This document shows positions 3 through 42,498 of a stretch of 64,000 nucleotides of DNA, piece by piece; within the stretch, counting starts at the first letter, position 1; every line of letters begins with the position of its first letter. The translations under genes and the position numbers were made by a program. The DNA is taken from contig JBAXXP010000001.1 in the NCBI GenBank assembly GCA_037127815.1, forward strand, positions 232,174-296,173. The letters are read 5' to 3'. The notes beneath the pieces were generated by a model. The model made no database searches. It was not told the DNA's origin and worked only from the letters and a program-made list of their open reading frames with translations. The DNA comes from a bacterium. Lineage in GTDB: Bacteria > Patescibacteriota > Minisyncoccia > Phycocordibacterales > CAIZLB01.

Positions 3-2135
3 CTTAAGGAAAAAATTAGACAAAGCTCAAATAATAATAAGTATGTACTAATGCGACACGGTGAATCCGAGTCCAATGTACATGACATTATAAATTCACA
101 CGATCTTAACCTTTATGGTCTAACTGAAAAAGGTGTTGCTCAAGTTGAGGCTGCTGCAAAACTTTTAGACGCTACTGGTGTTGTATCAAATGCTGTAAAC
201 AGCGATGCTGAGGAAGGTTCAAATGACAGTGTAGATAAAACAGGAGCGAAGCGTCCAATAACAAAAATGTATTGTTCAGATTTTAGAAGAACAAAAGAGT
301 CTGCGAAAATTTTGGCAAAGACTTTGGGAATTGATGAATCGAACATAATCTATGACGCAAGACTTAGAGAGTGTGATGGTGGCGAGCTTGAAGGTCGTTC
401 TTGGAATGAAAGGCTTACATGCTTTATGACAGAATGGCAAAAAGTATTTCTAAAGCCATATGGAGGGGAGTCAACTTTTGATATTAAAAAGAGAGTTGCT
501 AATTTTCTTTATGAAACTGACTCTGCAAACAAGGACGAGAATATCTTGATTGTTACACATGGACTTCCTGCAAGAATGATAAAGGAAGTTGCTAAAGGGC
601 GAACAACAAGAGATATGATAAGAAGTGGATGGCAGGATCGTTCTGATATAAATGCTTCACTTCACTACATTGATTTCGTTCAATGGCCTCACGATGATAA
701 TTTTGAACTTGATATTCACAGACCTTTAATTGATGCTGTAACTTGGAAAAATGAAGAAGGTGAATTAATGAAAAGAATTCCAGATGTTTTTGATGTTTGG
801 TATGACTCTGGTTCTATGCCTTTTGCTTCTCAGCATTATCCTTTTGAAAACAAGAAGGAGTTTGAAATGCCAGATAGTAAGATATTCCCAGCTGATTATA
901 TTGCCGAAGGATTGGATCAAACAAGAGGTTGGTTTTATTCTCTACTTTGTCTTGGTGTTGGATTGTTTGATAAGTCACCATTCAGAAATGTTTCAGTAAA
1001 CGGACTTGTTCTAGCAGAGGACGGCAAGAAGATGTCAAAGAGTCTTAATAACTTCCCAGAGCTTATGGGGGTAGTTGAAAGATATGGCGCTGACTCACTT
1101 AGATATGCATTGGTCACATCGCCCGTTGCACAAGCTGAGGATTATGCCTTTTCTGAAAAAGCATTAGATGAAGTTAATAAAAAGCTATTCAATAGATTGG
1201 ATAATGTTTATACATTCTACAAAACTTATCGTGACATGTTTGGAGGTGAAATTGAACAAAGTTTTTATCAGCTTGTTTCCAAAAATGTCTTAGATCAATG
1301 GATTGTGGCAAGACTTAAGAAATTGAGTAATGACATGACGAGGGATCTTGATGCGTATCTGATATCAAAAGCTATTCGTCCAATAAATCAATTTATCGAT
1401 GATCTATCAACTTGGTATTTAAGAAGATCAAGAGACAGATTCAAAGGTGATGATGTTGAAGATAGAAACTATGCGATTTCAACAATGAGATTTGTCTTAA
1501 TTAATCTTTCTAAATTAATAACACCAGTAACACCATTTTCAGGAGAGGATTTGTATCAAAAGATTAAATTAGATAATATTGGTGATTTAAAATTAAGTGT
1601 GAACCTAGAGGAATGGCCAAATCTTGGCGAGCTTTCTGATGAAGAAGAGACACTGCTTGCTAATATGGAAACAGCGAGATCTCTTGTTGAAACTGGATTG
1701 TCTCTTCGTGCAAAATTTCAGATAAAAGTTAGACAACCTCTTGCTTCATTTGTTTATGCAAACAAGGAAGGAGAAACTCTACCGGTGAGCATTGAGGAGA
1801 TTATTAAAGATGAACTAAACGTTAAGTCTGTTGTAGCGGGCAGTGCTGTAGCACTCGATATAAACCTAACACAAGAATTAAAGGAAGAGGGGATGTCCAG
1901 AGATCTAATTAGAGCTATTCAGGAGGCTAGAAAAGCTTTTGGTTTTTCTCCACAAGATAAAATTATTCTGGAATTAGAAGATAATGCTGTTGGAAAAATG
2001 TTAGAGTCTAAGTATTCTGCCTCAATTGCAAAAACTGTTCTCGCAAACAGTTTGGTGCTTATGGATTTTGAGGGAGGAGAGGCTGTGTCTATTGGAGATC
2101 AAGAAATACATTTCACAATTAAGGCTGTTGTATAA
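3..2135 (+). CDS. ileS: Isoleucyl-tRNA synthetase, C-terminal portion; the reading frame is open to the window edge so the gene starts upstream. It contains an embedded histidine-phosphatase (phosphoglycerate-mutase-like) domain
   Basis: DVWYDSGSMPF, DQTRGWFYSL and KMSKS motifs of class I IleRS (type-2-like HRPLID segment). N-terminal about 215 aa of the listed ORF shows LMRHGESESN ... LIVTHGLPAR histidine-phosphatase signature. No in-frame stop between nt 3 and 51. Confidence 0.8.
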   Translation, partial: LKEKIRQSSNNNKYVLMRHGESESNVHDIINSHDLNLYGLTEKGVAQVEAAAKLLDATGVVSNAVNSDAEEGSNDSVDKTGAKRPITKMYCSDFRRTKESAKILAKTLGIDESNIIYDARLRECDGGELEGRSWNERLTCFMTEWQKVFLKPYGGESTFDIKKRVANFLYETDSANKDENILIVTHGLPARMIKEVAKGRTTRDMIRSGWQDRSDINASLHYIDFVQWPHDDNFELDIHRPLIDAVTWKNEEGELMKRIPDVFDVWYDSGSMPFASQHYPFENKKEFEMPDSKIFPADYIAEGLDQTRGWFYSLLCLGVGLFDKSPFRNVSVNGLVLAEDGKKMSKSLNNFPELMGVVERYGADSLRYALVTSPVAQAEDYAFSEKALDEVNKKLFNRLDNVYTFYKTYRDMFGGEIEQSFYQLVSKNVLDQWIVARLKKLSNDMTRDLDAYLISKAIRPINQFIDDLSTWYLRRSRDRFKGDDVEDRNYAISTMRFVLINLSKLITPVTPFSGEDLYQKIKLDNIGDLKLSVNLEEWPNLGELSDEEETLLANMETARSLVETGLSLRAKFQIKVRQPLASFVYANKEGETLPVSIEEIIKDELNVKSVVAGSAVALDINLTQELKEEGMSRDLIRAIQEARKAFGFSPQDKIILELEDNAVGKMLESKYSASIAKTVLANSLVLMDFEGGEAVSIGDQEIHFTIKAVV

Positions 2136-2950: not shown

Positions 2951-4882
2951 ATGAATGATGAAGAAAAAATCGAAGAGCTGAAAAAAAAGCTTTACTCTCG
3001 AGTAGATAATCTACCAAAAATGAAACATGCCAAACTGCATGAGCATCATGTCTTGGTAAACAGAGACTGGGATGAAAAGGGGGAGCAGGCAGGGATACCA
3101 AAAATTGAATATGGAAAAAATAAAACTCACTCATTCCTAAAAGGTATGGCTGTTTTTGCTGTAATATTTTTCTTGATTGCCGCTGCAATAGCTTATTATT
3201 TTTTCATGGTCAGCCCCAATACAATTTCTAATGCAAATATTGGAATAAACATATCAGGGCCTATTACAGTTTCTGCAGGCCAAGAACTTTCACTGGACGT
3301 AAGTATATTCAATAATAATAGTGTAGCAATTGAATCAGCAGACCTTGTTGTTACATACCCAGAAGGAACAAGAAATTCTGTAGATAAGGTGACGAGCCTT
3401 GTAACCGATAGGACTCCAATAGGAGATATAGCGGCCGGCGCTAATCAAAGAGTTACAATAAAGTCTATTCTTTTGGGGGAGGAAGGCTCAACAAAAAATA
3501 TATCTATTGCTTTGGAGTATAAAATGCCTGGTACAAACAGTCTTTTTATTAAGCAAAAAGATTATCCAATAGGCATAGGAACAGGTCCTGTTTCCGTGAC
3601 CGTTGATTCTGTTAAGGAAATCACCCCAGAACAAAATACAAAATTTACTGTATCTGTTAAATCTAACTCTTCAGATGTTATCAGAGATGTTGTTCTTAGG
3701 TCAGAGTATCCTTTTGGATTTAATTATATATCTGCAGTCCCTGGTCCGTCATCATCAAATAATAGTTGGAGACTGGGAGACATCGCACCAGGTGAGGTGA
3801 AGAAAATTGTGGTAGAAGCAAAGATTTTTGGGCAAGCTAATCAAGAGAGAACTGTTAGATTCTATGCTGGAACTGCGCAAGCCAAGGATCCAAATGAAAT
3901 AGACACGACCTTCGCTTCATATTCACAGACGGTTAATTTGAAGGATCCATTCTTAGGGGCTGATGTAGCTATAAATGGCAAGGGGTCAGAAATCGTTATT
4001 GTTAACAGTGGGCAGTTTATTCAGGGCGATATTCTGTGGAAGAATAATCTCGATGTTTCTGTTCATAATGTTCAAATTCTAGGTGTTCTAAATGGTGTAA
4101 GCGTAGACAGAAGCTCAATTATTGCAGAAGGTGGATTTTATAAATCTAGCGATGATACCTTATCTTGGGAAAAGAGTACCAATCCAGAACTGGAAGACAT
4201 CGCACCCAATCAAAGTGGCTCAGTCCATTTTAATATGAAAGTTTTTGATTTAACAAAGGATCTAGCCTCAAATTTAAGAAGACCAGAAGTAACATTGGTT
4301 TTTTCGGTTAAGGGAACTAGATTAAATGAAAATAAAGTTTCTGAGGAAGTGACTTCACAGGCCTCAAGAAAAATAAGAGTTGCGAGTGATCTAGCTCTAG
4401 ACACAAGGTTGCTTTACAATGATGGACCATTTGAAAACACAGGTCCATTGCCCCCAAGAGTAGATAGTAAAACAACTTACACGGCAAATGTGAAGATTTC
4501 AAACTCATATAATAATGTTAGGGGTGTAATTTATACGGCCTCGCTACCGATATATGTAAAATGGCTGGGGAATGTAAGTCCAATGACCGCCAGTTCAACA
4601 GTTGTTTATGATGCTGAGAACAGAACTGTGACTTGGAATGCAGGGGACATTGCACCTGGTACTGGTTATATTTCTAATCCAAAAGAAATGACATTTCAAG
4701 TTGAGTTGTTGCCAAGTCTTTCTCAGCAGGGCCAATCTCCAATTATTGTAAGTAATCAAAGAATAGCTGGTACTGATAGTTTTACTAATACAGTTGTTAC
4801 AGCCAATGGGTACTCCTTAAACACCCAAATTAAGCTAGATTCAAAATATGATATGGATTTGGACAAGGTGGTTGGGAAGTAG
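2951..4882 (+). CDS. Hypothetical membrane-anchored surface protein: short cytoplasmic N-terminus, one TM (MAVFAVIFFLIAAAIAYYFF), large extracytoplasmic domain
   Basis: Long ORF, single N-proximal hydrophobic helix, no recognisable catalytic motifs. Confidence 0.5.
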   Translation: MNDEEKIEELKKKLYSRVDNLPKMKHAKLHEHHVLVNRDWDEKGEQAGIPKIEYGKNKTHSFLKGMAVFAVIFFLIAAAIAYYFFMVSPNTISNANIGINISGPITVSAGQELSLDVSIFNNNSVAIESADLVVTYPEGTRNSVDKVTSLVTDRTPIGDIAAGANQRVTIKSILLGEEGSTKNISIALEYKMPGTNSLFIKQKDYPIGIGTGPVSVTVDSVKEITPEQNTKFTVSVKSNSSDVIRDVVLRSEYPFGFNYISAVPGPSSSNNSWRLGDIAPGEVKKIVVEAKIFGQANQERTVRFYAGTAQAKDPNEIDTTFASYSQTVNLKDPFLGADVAINGKGSEIVIVNSGQFIQGDILWKNNLDVSVHNVQILGVLNGVSVDRSSIIAEGGFYKSSDDTLSWEKSTNPELEDIAPNQSGSVHFNMKVFDLTKDLASNLRRPEVTLVFSVKGTRLNENKVSEEVTSQASRKIRVASDLALDTRLLYNDGPFENTGPLPPRVDSKTTYTANVKISNSYNNVRGVIYTASLPIYVKWLGNVSPMTASSTVVYDAENRTVTWNAGDIAPGTGYISNPKEMTFQVELLPSLSQQGQSPIIVSNQRIAGTDSFTNTVVTANGYSLNTQIKLDSKYDMDLDKVVGK

Positions 4883-30280: not shown

Positions 30281-31128
30281 AAAATCGCTCAACTTCAAGA
30301 AACGACGAACTCAGCATTCCTGAAATTTGAAAATTAAATTCTGTACCAGTTTTAGTGGATAACATTCATGTAGTTTAGGCCATGTGGCCGATGCTACCTG
30401 ATACGTATTCTGTTTGGTCTTTTCAATACTGGAGACAGAGCTCCATGAAGTACTACTTTAAGGGTAATGCTGCATGGGGTCGTTATCGTACTTACTCTCA
30501 AGGAGTATGATAACAAAACAGGTAACAAACAAAAGTGATTGTGGTCTTTTTATTTCCTAATAGGAAATATAAGGGCGTATGGTGGATGCCTTGACACAAC
30601 ATAGCGATGAAGGACGCAGCATGGCGGCGATACGCTTCGGGGAGGTGCCTAGCAACCTTTGATCCGGAGATTTCCGAATGGGGAAACCCAAGAGACTTGA
30701 TCTCTTATCTTACTTTTAAGTAAGGTGCGCACCCAGTGAAGTAAAACATTCTAGTAACTGGAGGAAAAGAAAACAAGTACGTAAGTACACAATTTCGTAA
30801 ATAGCGGCGAGCGAAAACGAAATAGCCCAAACCAGACTTCCACATTGGGGATGACATTTTATCGGTTCTTTAATTTATTAGGGAACTATCATTATGCTGT
30901 CTCCTATGTGGCAGTCTGGGGTTGTAAGATAATAATAGGATATTTATATCCAAAGAGTTACAAAATTTTTTGTTAACAGAACGCGTTGGGAAGCGCGACC
31001 AAAGAGGGTGACAGTCCCGTATGTGAAAATAAAAAATCTCTTCTTTATTACTCTTGAGTACCCCGAGACACGAGTGGCTCGGGGGAATCCAGCAGAACTA
31101 ACTGCTAAGGCTAAATATATGTTGTGAT

Positions 31129-31165
<37 letters not shown>

Positions 31166-32591
31166 CAGTCCGATGAGGACAGTGAAATAGACCTGAAACC
31201 ATATGCCTACAAGGAGTCAGAGCGGACGTATTTATACGATCCGTCATGGCGTGCCTATTGAAGAATGAGCCAACGAGTTAATATGTATTGCTCGGCTAAA
31301 TCCGCGAGGATGGAGCCATAGGGAAACCGAGTATTAATAGTGCGTCCGTATTACATATTAGACCCGAAGCCAATGCGAGCTATCCCTGGTCAGGCTGAAC
31401 TTTGTCGAAAGACAAAGGGAGGGCCGAACCCGTATGTCGTTCAACTCATTGGGATGAACTGGGGATAGAAGTGAAAAGCTAATCGAGCTTGGTAATAGCT
31501 GGTTCTCTCCGAAATAGCTTTTGGGTTAGCGTCGTGTGTTCCTCTTGGGGGTAGAGCACTGGAAGGACTCGACAGGGAGAAATCTCGCGAGTCCTATCAA
31601 ACTCCGAATACCAAGAACTAAAGCACGGCAGTTAGTCCGTGGGGGCTAAGCTCCACAGGACAAAAGGGAAACAGCCCTAGATCCATATTTAAGGTCCCTA
31701 AATCTATACTAAGTGCACTTAAGGTGGTGGAATTTCTGAGACAATGAGGAGGTTTGCTTAGAAGCAGCAATCCTTGAAAGATAGCGTAATAGCTCACTCA
31801 TCGAGAGATTCTGCGCCGCAGATTCGCGGGGCTAAAGTATAGTACCGAAACTTGGGGTGTCCTACTGCTTCGGCGGTAGGGCGCGGTAGGAGAGTGTTCT
31901 TGTCTGCGATGAAGGGGAAGAGGTGACTCACCCTGGAGCGTCAAGAAGTAAGAATGTTGGCACAAGTAACCACAATCGGAGTGAAAAACTCCGACGCCGA
32001 AAGAACAAGGTTTCCTTCGCAATGATTGTCATCGAAGGGTTAGTCGGGCCTAAGGGGATGGTGAGAACCGAACCCGACGGACACATGGTTAATATTCCAT
32101 GACTTCTGTATACAGTGATGAAATGACGGAGTGTAGTATGAACAGCGCATAATCGGATTTGTGTCCATGCTTTAAGGAAGTTCTCTAGGTAAGTCCGGAG
32201 AGCTGATTTTAATATCAATTCCAAATAGAGTGGAGACGTTAGGGGTTCGCCTCTAAATAATTGTTCAAAGCACGCTTCCAAGAAAATTTTCTAAACTTAT
32301 GTATGCGGAAACCGTACCGAAAACCGACACAGGTGTTCAGGTCGAGTAGACCAAGGCGAACGGGTGAGAGGTCTTCAAGGAACTCGGCAAAAAAGCAGCC
32401 GTAACTTCGGAATAAGGCTCGCCCTCCCTAAAAAGAGGGTTGCAACAAAAGTATCCCTGGCAACTGTTTATCAAAAACACAGCTCCCTGCGAACTCGTAA
32501 GAGTATGTATAGGGGGTGACACCTGACCGATGCCAGAAGGTTAAACGTTGAGGGTACTATCGCAAGGTAGTGCTGATTGATGTAAGCCCTG

Positions 32592-32626
<35 letters not shown>

Positions 32627-32987
32627 TCAGCATTTGTTTTTATTAATGAATGCTGAAGAACTAGGACTGTTCATAGATGTGTTGATAAATAATGAAGAAC
32701 CAAAGAATGCAAAGGAAAATTAGAGCTGCCTGTTTCAGTAAAATGAAGCGTTCAGACTGACTATATGCTGGTAAATCTGTGTGTGAAAAACACTGTAGTA
32801 TCTAACACTACTAAGTTATAAAATTCGAAAGAAAATTATTTCAAGTAAAAATGTGATTAGTGCAGACGATCAGCAGGAAAGACTAAAAAGTAATTTTTAG
32901 AATCCTCAGAAACCAAACGTCAGACTAAATAGTAATATTTAGAAGATAGAGTTCGATCTTTATAGCGATATAAAGTTAACATAAATT
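32627..32987 (+). mobile_element. Group I intron in 23S rRNA at the position equivalent to E. coli about 1931 (between CCUAAGGU and AGCGAAAUUCC); no ORF
   Basis: 361-nt insertion splitting a universally conserved 23S block. Contains group I core elements (CAGACTAAATA R-like, AGAAGATAGAGTTCGATC S-like). Boundaries +/- 2 nt. Confidence 0.7.
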
Positions 32988-33316
32988 AGCGAAATTCCTT
33001 GTCAGGTAAGTTCTGACGCGCACGAATGGTGTAATGACTGGGGAACTGTCTCGAAGACCCGCCCGGTGAAAATGCAATGGAGGTGAAGATGCCTCCTACC
33101 TGCAGCTAGACGAAAAGACCCCAGAAGCTTCACTGCAACTTGATATTGATTGTATGTTTTTACTGCGTAGAATAGATGGGAGAGGTTGAGATCCTGATTT
33201 CGGTTAGGGTGGACTCGTCAGTGAAATACCATTCTTTAAAAATATACATTCTAACCTCGACGGAAAAAACGTCGAGAGACAGTATCTGGTGGGCAGTTTT
33301 AGTGGGGCGCTATCCT

Positions 33317-33680
33317 CGAGGGTTTAAATTAATTTTTGAATCCTCGAACTATGGCGCCTCCAGAGATTTGTCATCTCGAAACAAATAAAAAAGGGGGACT
33401 GTAATAAGTAATTATTATTAGAAAAGTTAGTTATATGCTGGAAAATCTGTGTCTTCAATGACTTAGAATGCAAGCTACCTATTAATTTAGGTAACAATGT
33501 TTGCATGCAGACTATCAGCAGGAAAGATTTCTATCACAAAAAGTAAAATTGATGTAATAGAGAAATCCTCAGAGACTATACGCTAACCGTCCAGTAAAAT
33601 GGATGATGATATAGTCCGATCTTTATAGCGATATAAAGCTTACTGAAAAGTAAGGCTTAGTAAAATAAGTAACATAAATG
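33317..33680 (+). mobile_element. Group I intron in 23S rRNA inserted just 3' of the P-loop block (GGGGCGCUAUCCU | CCUAAAAAGUAACGGAGG; E. coli about 2260s); no ORF
   Basis: 364-nt insertion; 5' exon ends in U and intron ends in G. Shares core elements with intron 1 (TATATGCTGG-AAATCTGTGT, ATCAGCAGGAAAGA, GATGATATAGTCCGATC, AACATAAAT). Confidence 0.7.
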
Positions 33681-34066
33681 CCTAAAAAGTAACGGAGGAG
33701 TCTATTAAGGTCAGCTAGGCGCGAATGGAAACCGTGCCGATAGTGCAATGGCATAAGCTGGCTTGACTGTGAGGCGTAAGTGCCAAACAGACGCGAAAGC
33801 GGAGCATAGTGAACCGAGGGTCCGCATTAGATGCGGCCAAAGATTATCTGACAAAAGCTACTCTGGGGATAACAGGCTGGTTGTGCCTAAGCGTCCATAG
33901 CGACGGCACAGTTCGGCACCTCGATGTCGGCTCGACTTATCCTGGGGGTGAAGAAGCTCCCAAGGGTATGGCTGTTCGCCATTTAAAAAGTCACGCGAGC
34001 TGGGTTCAGACCGTCGTAAGACAGGTTGGTCTCCTATCTGCTGCAGGCGTTGATACTTGAGAGGAA

Positions 34067-34097
<31 letters not shown>

Positions 34098-34413
34098 TGA
34101 TCTCTGGTGTACCAGTTGTCTTGCCAAAGGCATCGCTGGGTAGCTATATCGGGAATGGATAAGCTCTGAAAGCATCTAAGAGCGAAGCCAACCTCAAGAT
34201 AAGGTATCGTTTGAGATCCGTGAGAGATTATCACGTTGATAGGCACTAAGTATAAGCATAGTAATATGTTCAGCTGAGGTGTACTAATAAATCGATTCTT
34301 ATTAGGAAATATGAAGATTCACGATCACTTTTGTTTGTGACCTAAATTACAAAATAATAATTCTGCAAGTTTTATTATAGAACCATGAAAAGACCTTTAA
34401 ATTGACCGTTTCG

Positions 34414-34523
34414 TTCTGGTGACTCGTCGGAGGGGCCACACCTGATCTCATTCCGAACTCAGAAGTTAAGACCTCCAGAGGCGATGATACTCACTTGTTG
34501 GGGAAAGTAGCTCGTCGCCAGAA
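34414..34523 (+). rRNA. rrf: 5S ribosomal RNA
   Basis: CCACACCTGATCTCATTCCGAACTCAGAAGTTAAG ... terminal helix TTCTGGTGAC / GTCGCCAGAA. Confidence 0.85.
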
Positions 34524-40414: not shown

Positions 40415-40602
40415 TACGACCACGCCACTGATGATTTTCACAAATCATTTGATTAAATCGCAGGGGGCCGTCCTAGGAATCTCCCAGGAATATTGAGTTA
40501 GGTAAAACTAATAAAATATTTCAGGCATTTCTAAAGACATCTTTGACAACTAAATGACAACCAACAAACGTCCTTTTTTTTGTTCTGTTTGAGTTTAATT
40601 TT

Positions 40603-42062
<1,460 letters not shown>

Positions 42063-42424
42063 GAACAATTCAATTTGAAAAATGCGTACATGAATTTCAT
42101 GTATTAGCTGAATACGGTTGATCGAACTTAATTTATTAAGCTCAATGAGATTATGCCTCGAGAATGCATAAGGAAGGTATAACCTAAATATACTGCCTCC
42201 TGGGAACAAGGCCAGGCCAAACAGAACAATAATAAGGACGGTTGAGGTTGTCATTTAGTCGCCAAAGTACATATTTTATATGATAAAAGTACTCCGCAAG
42301 CGGGGTTTTTTTATTGCTTTGTTTTTCTTAAAATAGTCTTTAAAATAGACTTGTTTTTAATGGGATAATTTGATACATTATAAACCACAAACAGCAAAGG
42401 TTTGACAAGTCTGTTTGTAAGAAT

Positions 42425-42498
42425 GCGTGTGTAGCTCAGCTGGTTAGAGCACTTCACTGATAATGAAGAGGCCGCAGGTTCGAGTCCTGCCACACGCA
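42425..42498 (+). tRNA. tRNA-Ile (anticodon GAU)
   Basis: GCGTGTGTAGCTCAGCTGGTTAGAGCACTTCACTGATAATGAAGAGGCCGCAGGTTCGAGTCCTGCCACACGCA; cloverleaf with CUGAUAA anticodon loop. Confidence 0.85.

Follow-up and report, generated by a model that had tools for sequence, protein, structure and literature searches.

The 64-kb stretch of bacterial DNA analysed here (contig JBAXXP010000001.1 of assembly GCA_037127815.1, positions 232,174 to 296,173; hereafter the window) opens inside the gene for an isoleucyl-tRNA synthetase (IleRS) that carries a histidine phosphatase (HP) within its catalytic core. Judged by its motifs and domains, the protein is the housekeeping type-2 IleRS of a bacterium of the Patescibacteria, or candidate phyla radiation (CPR), and the insert of ~215 aa is nested where the CP3 zinc-knuckle hairpin has its tip, after the CP2 region and before the second Rossmann half. 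Sequence profiles and a structure model identify the insert as a genuine histidine phosphatase of branch 1, from a subfamily that has not been curated. As far as sequences can tell, the architecture is real and widespread in Patescibacteria, where its representatives have been public under generic names. The explanation of the whole that we favour, with moderate confidence, is a type-2 IleRS whose nested and intact phosphatase acts in the charging cycle.

All parts of the gene lie on the + strand, where frame 3 is free of stops from nucleotide 3 to the stop codon at 2133-2135; nucleotides 3-2135 are the 3′ part of ileS, codons 564-1273 plus the stop, as indicated by Pfam, TIGR00392 and contigs that extend upstream. 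A preliminary description, made from the window alone, had noted that this frame stays open to the window edge and had placed the phosphatase inside ileS rather than in a separate gene. Both statements held: the DNA recovered upstream encodes the N-terminal and CP1 parts of IleRS in the same frame, and the parts follow each other uninterrupted, with neither a stop codon nor a frameshift between them. The ATG at nucleotide 51, where the list of open reading frames (ORFs) begins since it is the first start codon past the window edge, is merely an internal methionine of ...KYVLMRHGESESN / ...NNNKYVLMRHGESESN and not a start codon. The upstream DNA was obtained by looking up the exact product of the neighbouring recO-like ORF (2198-2794) in public assemblies, where 22 contigs carry it. 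In their overlap with the window, two of these, L002 and L004, show 0 mismatches, and a third, L001 (GCA_005795825.1), differs at 12 of 10,741 bases. Each of the three has one 1273-aa gene upstream of recO (L001:6117-9938, L002:5784-9605, L004:3206-7027), the translations from L001 and L002 are identical, and the first 563 codons, upstream of the window, correspond to L002:5784-7472. In total, five independent assemblies (from NCBI, Logan, ENA and JGI) contain the continuous 1273-aa ORF, and two of these assemblies match the window exactly. A window that begins inside an ORF could not by itself exclude an artefact, either a chimera made in assembly or a sequencing frameshift that fuses two genes. 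This explanation, to which we give virtually no credence, is refuted by the same ORF in contigs from four independent sources, by the position of the phosphatase between the two halves of one IleRS and not at its end, and by junctions that recur in the genomes of 80 species and in over 128 protein clusters.

The domain order of the full protein is that of a synthetase interrupted once. Pfam assigns tRNA-synt_1 (profile positions 2-277), His_Phos_1 (95.3 bits), tRNA-synt_1 again (277-411), Anticodon_1 and DUF5915, and the ileS equivalog model TIGR00392 recognises the full protein with 838.7 bits against a cutoff of 621.4, its match being split at profile position 507|508. The 710-residue fragment encoded in the window gives the corresponding partial picture, in keeping with the earlier proposal that a phosphatase runs directly into IleRS sequence: His_Phos_1 (PF00300) matches with E=1e-27 and 97.5 bits (gathering cutoff 21.7), followed by tRNA-synt_1 (PF00133) from profile position 277, Anticodon_1 and DUF5915, while TIGR00392 matches only from position 508 of 861, with a score of 300. 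The full protein also has an N-terminal extension of ~48 aa, rich in Lys, Glu and Thr and encoded upstream of the window, a lineage-specific expansion in an essential enzyme.

All signatures expected of the synthetase are in place. The class I motifs HIGH (as HFGH, residue 90) and KMSKS (residue 906) are present together with the CP1 editing motifs TTTPWT (residue 273) and GTGIVH (residue 395); WxISR stands at residue 533, the phosphatase motifs RHGE and THG at residues 581 and 748, and HRP, WYDSG and DQTRGW at residues 802, 829 and 868. The second half of the Rossmann fold, with the rest of CP3, spans nucleotides 705-1140 of the window (HRPLID 717-734, WYDSG 798-812, DQTRGW 915-932, KMSKS 1029-1043). 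Nucleotides 1293-2123 encode the anticodon-binding domain (Anticodon_1, 1293-1742) and the C-terminal DUF5915 (1845-2123; PF19302, residues 1178-1270), and thus a type-2 C-terminal organisation. In the PDB, the protein is matched best by IleRS2 from Priestia megaterium (8c8u, E=2e-197), by T. thermophilus IleRS and by cytoplasmic enzymes of eukaryotes. No second ileS was found within the window. Because the synthetase keeps all of its own motifs, charging and proofreading of tRNA(Ile) should be normal. The NCBI name of the window protein is only 'class I tRNA ligase family protein'.

Where does the phosphatase sit? The alignment to 8c8u stops at residue 558 of our protein (chain residue 467) and restarts at residue 794 (chain residue 483), so that ~235 residues stand in place of a ~15-residue CP3 loop of an ordinary IleRS2; the alignment to C. 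albicans IleRS (6ldk) reaches residue 497 of that protein, within CP3. The CP3 subdomain, described as residues 473-534, connects CP2 with the second Rossmann half and, in T. thermophilus IleRS, carries the zinc motif (PMC7191050). At the insertion point, the canonical IleRS P0003 reads AELKEKCGLKGEIELHKPYVD / ...PIWVCDKCGKTEAIGSKAELKEKCGLKGEIELHKPYVDGATYKCSCGG.... Of 80 species, 40 have the four zinc cysteines (2+2) on either side of the insert and 36 lack all four; close relatives of the window (L014-L018) are among these 36, and the window protein itself is also without them. On the N side, comparison with P0003 places the junction at nucleotides 3-38, where the end of a CP3 helix (…SYAELKEK) passes into the linker IRQSSNNN. 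On the C side, the linker VQWPHDDNF leads back into IleRS at ELDIHRP (nucleotides 672-704), in line with the family consensus F.plPhN..gELDLHRPYID, and its Pro229 (nucleotides 687-689) is conserved in 119 of 129 representatives. The linkers are short, ~8-10 residues per side. An intein or mobile element was considered and rejected, as no splicing or endonuclease motifs were found in the insert, which has a normal enzyme fold.

The phosphatase fold takes up nucleotides 39-671 (fragment residues 13-223, residues 576-786 of the full protein; PF00300, AlphaFold2, Foldseek). The AlphaFold2 model, computed for the first 276 residues of the fragment with an alignment of 77 sequences, has a mean predicted local distance difference test score (pLDDT) of 80.7, with 88-98 in the fold core, and its secondary structure elements run from strand 13-18 to strand 220-223. 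Searched against the PDB with Foldseek, the model matches TIGAR (3dcy), the mycobacterial glucosyl-3-phosphoglycerate phosphatase Rv2419c (4pz9), the phosphoserine phosphatase PspA from Hydrogenobacter (4ij6) and PhoE (1h2e) at E ~5e-11 and 20-22% identity, well above what chance would give, with template modelling scores (normalised to the target) of 0.57-0.76; CobC and dPGMs are also among the matches. Detection by sequence only yields just PhoE and TIGAR, at E ~2e-4. The bit scores stay below the cutoffs of the curated families, both for the nested domain and for P0165, one of the free-standing relatives described below: the alpha-ribazole phosphatase CobC (TIGR03162) 72.2 and 85 against 162.9, the 2,3-BPG-dependent phosphoglycerate mutase model dPGM_arch (NF038349) 68 and 93.7 against 225, and PspA (NF045917) 41.5 and 78.3 against 350; for TIGR01258, P0165 scores 48.5 against 81.7. 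Since these cutoffs are missed, as is that of the GNAT-containing IleRS family discussed further below, we place the protein outside the dPGM, CobC, PspA and GNAT-IleRS families. Inside the fold lies a low-complexity loop, predicted to be disordered, of 26 aa (ATGVVSNAVNSDAEEGSNDSVDKTGA; nucleotides 171-248, fragment residues 57-82; AlphaFold2, alignment), rich in Ser, Asn, Asp and Gly. It is gapped in 127-128 of 129 representatives, its pLDDT falls below 50 at residues 63-78, and it is another lineage-specific expansion in this essential enzyme.

How common is this architecture? A HMMER search of 1.84 billion cluster representatives with a profile of the phosphatase plus its junctions returned 178 clusters (50% identity) with E<=1e-30. 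Among the top 150, the match falls almost always where this insertion site predicts it, and 128 cover the insert completely. The full search was needed to reveal the family, as a word-index protein search with the phosphatase and junction gave 3 matches. Full-length members measure 1110-1275 aa. In a scan of GTDB with one genome per species, using the pattern [LIV]MRHGE[SA][ED][NS] derived from an alignment of six HP sequences, at least 475 stretches encode a relative; species counts given here rest on the best 80 of these loci. In all 80, the phosphatase lies in frame, in one ORF, between the N- and C-terminal parts of IleRS. Their labels are Paceibacterota, Parcubacteria, Nomura-, Taylor-, Yonath- and Kaiserbacteria, 'Patescibacteria group' and, for many metagenome-assembled genomes, 'uncultured Candidatus Saccharibacteria'; the remainder are some labelled 'uncultured bacterium' or 'bacterium' and one 'Bacillota'. 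The last, L080 (JBLNCF010000015.1, 'Bacillota bacterium'), is probably mislabelled or a contaminated bin. The word 'unusual' in the preliminary description is thus apt for described biology and does not apply within Patescibacteria, where the architecture is common. Across the 80 species, mean identity to the window protein is 41.5% in the phosphatase, 42.7% in the anticodon-binding and C-terminal part, and 53-55% in the catalytic core. The phosphatase is on a par with the anticodon part; it is thus constrained as a working domain of IleRS would be, unlike a decaying passenger.

The CP3 tip (site A) is one of three places at which these synthetases hold a phosphatase; the other two are occupied in a few lineages. 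In P0128 (1419 aa; six members including P0276-P0280, on contigs of up to 1.06 Mb), the zinc knuckle of CP3 is uninterrupted, without an insert, and phosphatases are found instead at site B, between WFDSGSMPYAS and FPVADFIAEGLDQTRGW, that is, between the WFDSG and DQTRGW motifs, and at site C, where the anticodon-binding domain begins behind KMSKS. P0108 (1087 aa) has them at sites A and B, and P0151 (979 aa) at sites A and C. That the same synthetase has repeatedly captured the same phosphatase argues for selection and not accident, while its tolerance at three sites suggests that exact placement relative to the active site is not critical. One further variant, P0104 (1395 aa), combines a phosphatase at the usual site A with a P-loop kinase-like module of ~170 aa at site B (residues ~725-905, between WFDSGSMPYAS and FHPADFIAEGLDQTRGW, Walker A GACGAGKTT). 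The module has weak Pfam matches to AAA_18, AAA_33 and Zeta_toxin, and an assignment to a kinase family was tried and given up: the best matches, to APS, shikimate and Pnkp1 kinases, reach E values of 0.02-0.06 and none is assignable. A search for relatives of the module found none, leaving it a singleton on an 11.6-kb contig. It may be of a generic small-molecule or nucleotide-kinase type; as an anecdote, it is given little weight. A kinase and a phosphatase in one synthetase recall end-healing or PFK2/FBPase2-type pairs.

The same phosphatase subfamily is encoded on its own as well. When the profile is restricted to the insert, the top matches are stand-alone proteins of ~190 aa, with E values down to 1e-59. 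The few named sources are Patescibacteria group, Paceibacterota and Staskawiczbacteria, and the annotations read 'histidine phosphatase family protein', 'PhoE' and, once, 'isoleucyl-tRNA synthetase'; with such generic names, the link of the stand-alone form to translation is invisible in the databases. Genomic context was collected for nine free-standing proteins at ten loci. At all ten, the gene adjoins an ileS without insert (939-960 aa), and at eight it lies directly upstream of ileS and in the same direction, with a spacing of -4 to ~+24 nt. The usual order is argS-HP-ileS-recO-CLIPPER protein-glyS, the same synteny as in the window, and at L012 the HP-ileS pair is retained though the genes upstream differ. 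At the other two loci (L094:1802-6956 and L095:1588-6914), argS and the phosphatase gene behind it share a strand and are 4-26 nt apart, and the neighbouring ileS is inverted and convergent. Nested and separate forms were not found together in the loci covered: of a set of 93, 92 had exactly one phosphatase, either nested or separate (L003 lacks the region), the three loci added to this set have a single called phosphatase gene each, and the window holds no second phosphatase gene or paralogue. Fusion in some genomes and preserved adjacency in others are classic evidence of a functional link. The nested form, spread across a major radiation, the neighbour-gene form in sister lineages and the independent re-insertions all point in this direction, and we think that the phosphatase probably works with IleRS or the charging machinery and is not a passenger. 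As to its origin, the nested form on balance most likely derives from the neighbouring gene by local duplication or insertion, with later loss of the original; the reverse course, a precise excision followed by re-insertion upstream, is harder to imagine.

The same genomic facts bear on a more prosaic explanation, in which an ordinary small-molecule metabolic phosphatase (of the sugar-phosphate, phosphoserine or phosphoglycerate type) was fused to the synthetase by local rearrangement and shares nothing with it other than co-expression. The closest structures and profiles are indeed PhoE, PspA, Rv2419c, TIGAR, CobC and dPGM_arch, gene proximity offers the opportunity for fusion, and the three insertion sites suggest that geometry is unimportant; CPR genomes are compact, and their operons mix functions. 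However, nesting in an essential catalytic core is far harder to fix than an end-to-end fusion, and here it arose at no fewer than three sites and persists in at least 80 species. Adjacency to ileS held at 10 of 10 loci, including L012 with its differing upstream context, none of the 92 phosphatase-bearing loci holds both forms, and all curated metabolic families of the superfamily are missed by their cutoffs. We regard a purely metabolic enzyme as a serious but rather doubtful alternative.

The state of the catalytic site speaks to activity. The motifs quoted in the preliminary description are genuine: in alignments, RHGE (nucleotides 54-65) corresponds to the catalytic Arg-His of the superfamily and THG (555-563) to the second His, and the earlier view of a catalytically intact-looking phosphatase is borne out by the presence of Arg18/His19, Arg96, Glu123 and His186. 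By conservation, Arg18-His19 (Arg581-His582 of the full protein; nucleotides 54-59) supply the predicted phospho-accepting nucleophile, the His of RHGE; Arg96 (Arg659; 288-290) is the second arginine of the phosphate pocket, Glu123 (Glu686; 369-371, motif RLRE.D.G.LEG) the predicted proton donor, and His186 (His749; 558-560, motif IVTHG) the second catalytic His. In the alignment built from the 128 representatives with complete inserts, Arg18, His19, Glu156 and His186 are found in 129 of 129 sequences, Arg96 in 128 and Arg164 in 126, and position 123 is Glu in 119 and Asp in 7. Among 81 sequences from GTDB species, Arg18-His19 and Arg96 are present in 81, position 123 is Glu in 80 and Asp in one, and His186 is present in 80, with a gap in the remaining one. 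The catalytic set is thus near-invariant across ~200 sequences at 25-50% identity, a pattern that shows strong purifying selection on the predicted catalytic site. We consider the domain very probably active as an enzyme. By analogy with the superfamily, His582 would attack a phosphomonoester and become phosphorylated, Arg581, Arg659 and His749 would hold the phosphoryl group, Glu686 would protonate the leaving group, and water would then free the phosphate.

Could the domain instead be a non-hydrolytic module that binds a phospho-ligand or phosphoprotein and controls IleRS allosterically, or a dimerisation or scaffold element? Binding alone would also conserve the residues of the phosphate pocket, many branch-1 enzymes are dimeric, some IleRSs contain two copies, and the short linkers keep the phosphatase against CP3. 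Against this, the proton-donor Glu and both His are nearly always kept, which is a signature of turnover, whereas pseudo-enzymes of the superfamily usually lose at least one catalytic residue. The free-standing form, moreover, looks like a normal enzyme of ~190 aa. A module without hydrolysis is in our view improbable.

In the reading that we prefer, an active phosphatase serving the charging cycle, the domain would be tethered so as to act where the synthetase binds tRNA and ATP, and our guess is that its substrate is a phosphomonoester of the aminoacylation cycle. One tentative candidate is a nucleotide that arises as a by-product or serves as a regulator, such as AMP, a nucleoside diphosphate or an Ap4A-type compound; nucleotides have a precedent as substrates in the HP domain of MutT1 from mycobacteria. 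A fainter candidate is a 2′/3′-phosphate that blocks the acceptor end of the tRNA. If we had to rank the options, we would guess a nucleotide first, then a 2′/3′-phosphate or pyrophosphate at the tRNA end, then an unrelated small metabolite and finally a phosphoprotein. The second option makes speculation about built-in repair of the tRNA acceptor end enticing, in which the phosphatase would clear a phosphate or pyrophosphate from the CCA end before the same enzyme charges the tRNA again. The 2′/3′-phosphate would stem from nuclease damage, or the phosphate or pyrophosphate from toxin enzymes, and the free-standing gene beside argS and ileS would be the trans-acting version. We regard this specific proposal as rather unlikely; if true, it would make IleRS an aminoacyl-tRNA synthetase (aaRS) with an integrated end-healing site besides its synthetic and editing sites.

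Several observations weigh against a role in the charging cycle or blur its details. The nearest solved structures found with Foldseek in the PDB are small-molecule phosphatases, only 20-22% identical, and we know of no RNA-end phosphatase in this superfamily. The three tolerated sites speak for simple tethering or co-stoichiometry rather than for a tight channel. In L094 and L095, the co-orientation of the phosphatase with argS means that the tie may be to the argS/ileS translation-gene cluster rather than to IleRS specifically. Lastly, a rough neighbour-joining tree of 146 HP domains separates nested and free copies only partly (one clade unites 57 of 70 free copies with 2 nested ones), and the number and direction of events are not settled by it.

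The substrate could also be a protein. Phosphatases that act on Ser/Thr, Tyr and His of proteins are found in branch 1, and synthetases other than IleRS (GltX, TrpS) are inactivated by kinases of the HipA family. A phosphatase of the PGAM5, Sts or SixA-like kind might undo an inhibitory kinase mark, for example that of a HipA-like toxin, on IleRS or a neighbouring translation factor, and a tether in cis would fit such self-repair. Against this, the conserved neighbourhood of the examined loci showed no kinase partner, sequence and fold are nearest to small-molecule enzymes with SixA a weak match, and the sole kinase-like insert, that of P0104, is a singleton whose type is generic, that of small-molecule or nucleotide kinases. 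We consider a protein phosphatase very improbable.

Finally, we would like to place the window protein into the context of known systems. P. megaterium IleRS2 (8C8U) and T. thermophilus IleRS (1ILE) belong to the same family and share the order HIGH, CP1 editing, CP2, CP3, KMSKS, anticodon-binding domain and DUF5915. Compared with 8C8U, the window protein has ~235 residues (558-794) in place of a ~15-residue tip (467-483), has lost the zinc cysteines and has gained the ~48-aa N-terminal extension. The phosphatase shares its fold and the RHG...R...E...H set with PhoE/YhfR (1EBB, 1H2E), PspA (4IJ6), Rv2419c (4PZ9), TIGAR (3DCY) and CobC, and it equals the small branch-1 enzymes in size once its lineage-specific loop is removed; it differs from them in its 20-22% identity, in passing no curated subfamily cutoff and in its location inside or beside an aaRS. 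Phosphatases of this superfamily have been chained to RNA or nucleotide enzymes before, in mycobacterial RNase H/acid phosphatase (Rv2228c type, NF005567) and MutT1 (Nudix plus HP, NF052459). However, those are end-to-end fusions with other partners, whereas the present phosphatase is nested in a catalytic core, and similarity to the fusion-family profile is weak (56 against a cutoff of 326 bits). A precedent for an extra catalytic domain in IleRS itself is NF040702, an IleRS with an N-acetyltransferase (GNAT) domain, but the window protein scores 316 against a cutoff of 1999 bits, has no acetyltransferase Pfam match and carries a different extra domain; a paper on SB-203208 (SbzA/GNAT) proved unrelated. 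With the kinase-phosphatases of T4 and Clostridium (Pnkp), there is a functional analogy only: P0104 pairs a phosphatase and a P-loop kinase-like module within IleRS, but its kinase is a singleton with a weak Pnkp1 match (E=0.056), and the phosphatase of Pnkp has a different fold, HAD or calcineurin-like.

Accessory and nested domains of synthetases are an established theme (CP1 editing, the LeuRS-specific domain, GNAT-IleRS, appended domains in eukaryotes), and fusions of histidine phosphatases with RNase H or Nudix domains are known as well. For a histidine phosphatase nested in, or encoded beside, IleRS, no literature was found in the searches completed, and a 2026 survey of 96,219 IleRS sequences makes no mention of a phosphatase or of CPR. 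Few enzymes have been studied as thoroughly as the aaRSs, and time and again their accessory domains have led to new biology, such as editing, signalling and complex assembly. In the present case, an apparently active enzyme of another class sits inside the catalytic core of an essential synthetase. If our reading is right, this implies an uncharacterised phosphate-removal step tied to tRNA charging in Patescibacteria, and its substrate could reveal tRNA repair or quality control, a nucleotide-recycling shortcut in a minimal metabolism, or a new form of synthetase regulation.

Some features of the neighbourhood and of the rest of the window deserve mention. The recO-like gene (2198-2794, + strand) is the downstream synteny partner in the conserved order argS-[HP]-ileS-recO-CLIPPER protein-glyS. 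Its product has 198 aa here with RecO_N only, compared to 236-249 aa with RecO_N and RecO_C in most syntenic relatives and 186 aa in one; RecO may have been shortened in the lineage of the window. Between recO and an ORF of 643 aa with a CLIPPER domain (2951-4882), immediately upstream of the latter, lies an intergenic tandem repeat (2858-2938) with a 25-bp unit, GGTGATTTAGCCAAATCACCTACTG, in 3.2 copies with 92% matches, which could be a regulatory or binding-site array. Further downstream, the 23S rRNA gene (30556-34308) exceeds the Rfam model by ~830 nt and has a group I intron at 33367-33638. It is followed by the 5S gene (34415-34523), and the 16S gene (40596-42075) lies ~6 kb downstream of the 23S/5S pair, so that the rRNA genes are unlinked and their order is unusual; a tRNA gene is found at 42425-42498. 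Unlinked rRNA genes that bear introns are typical of CPR bacteria.

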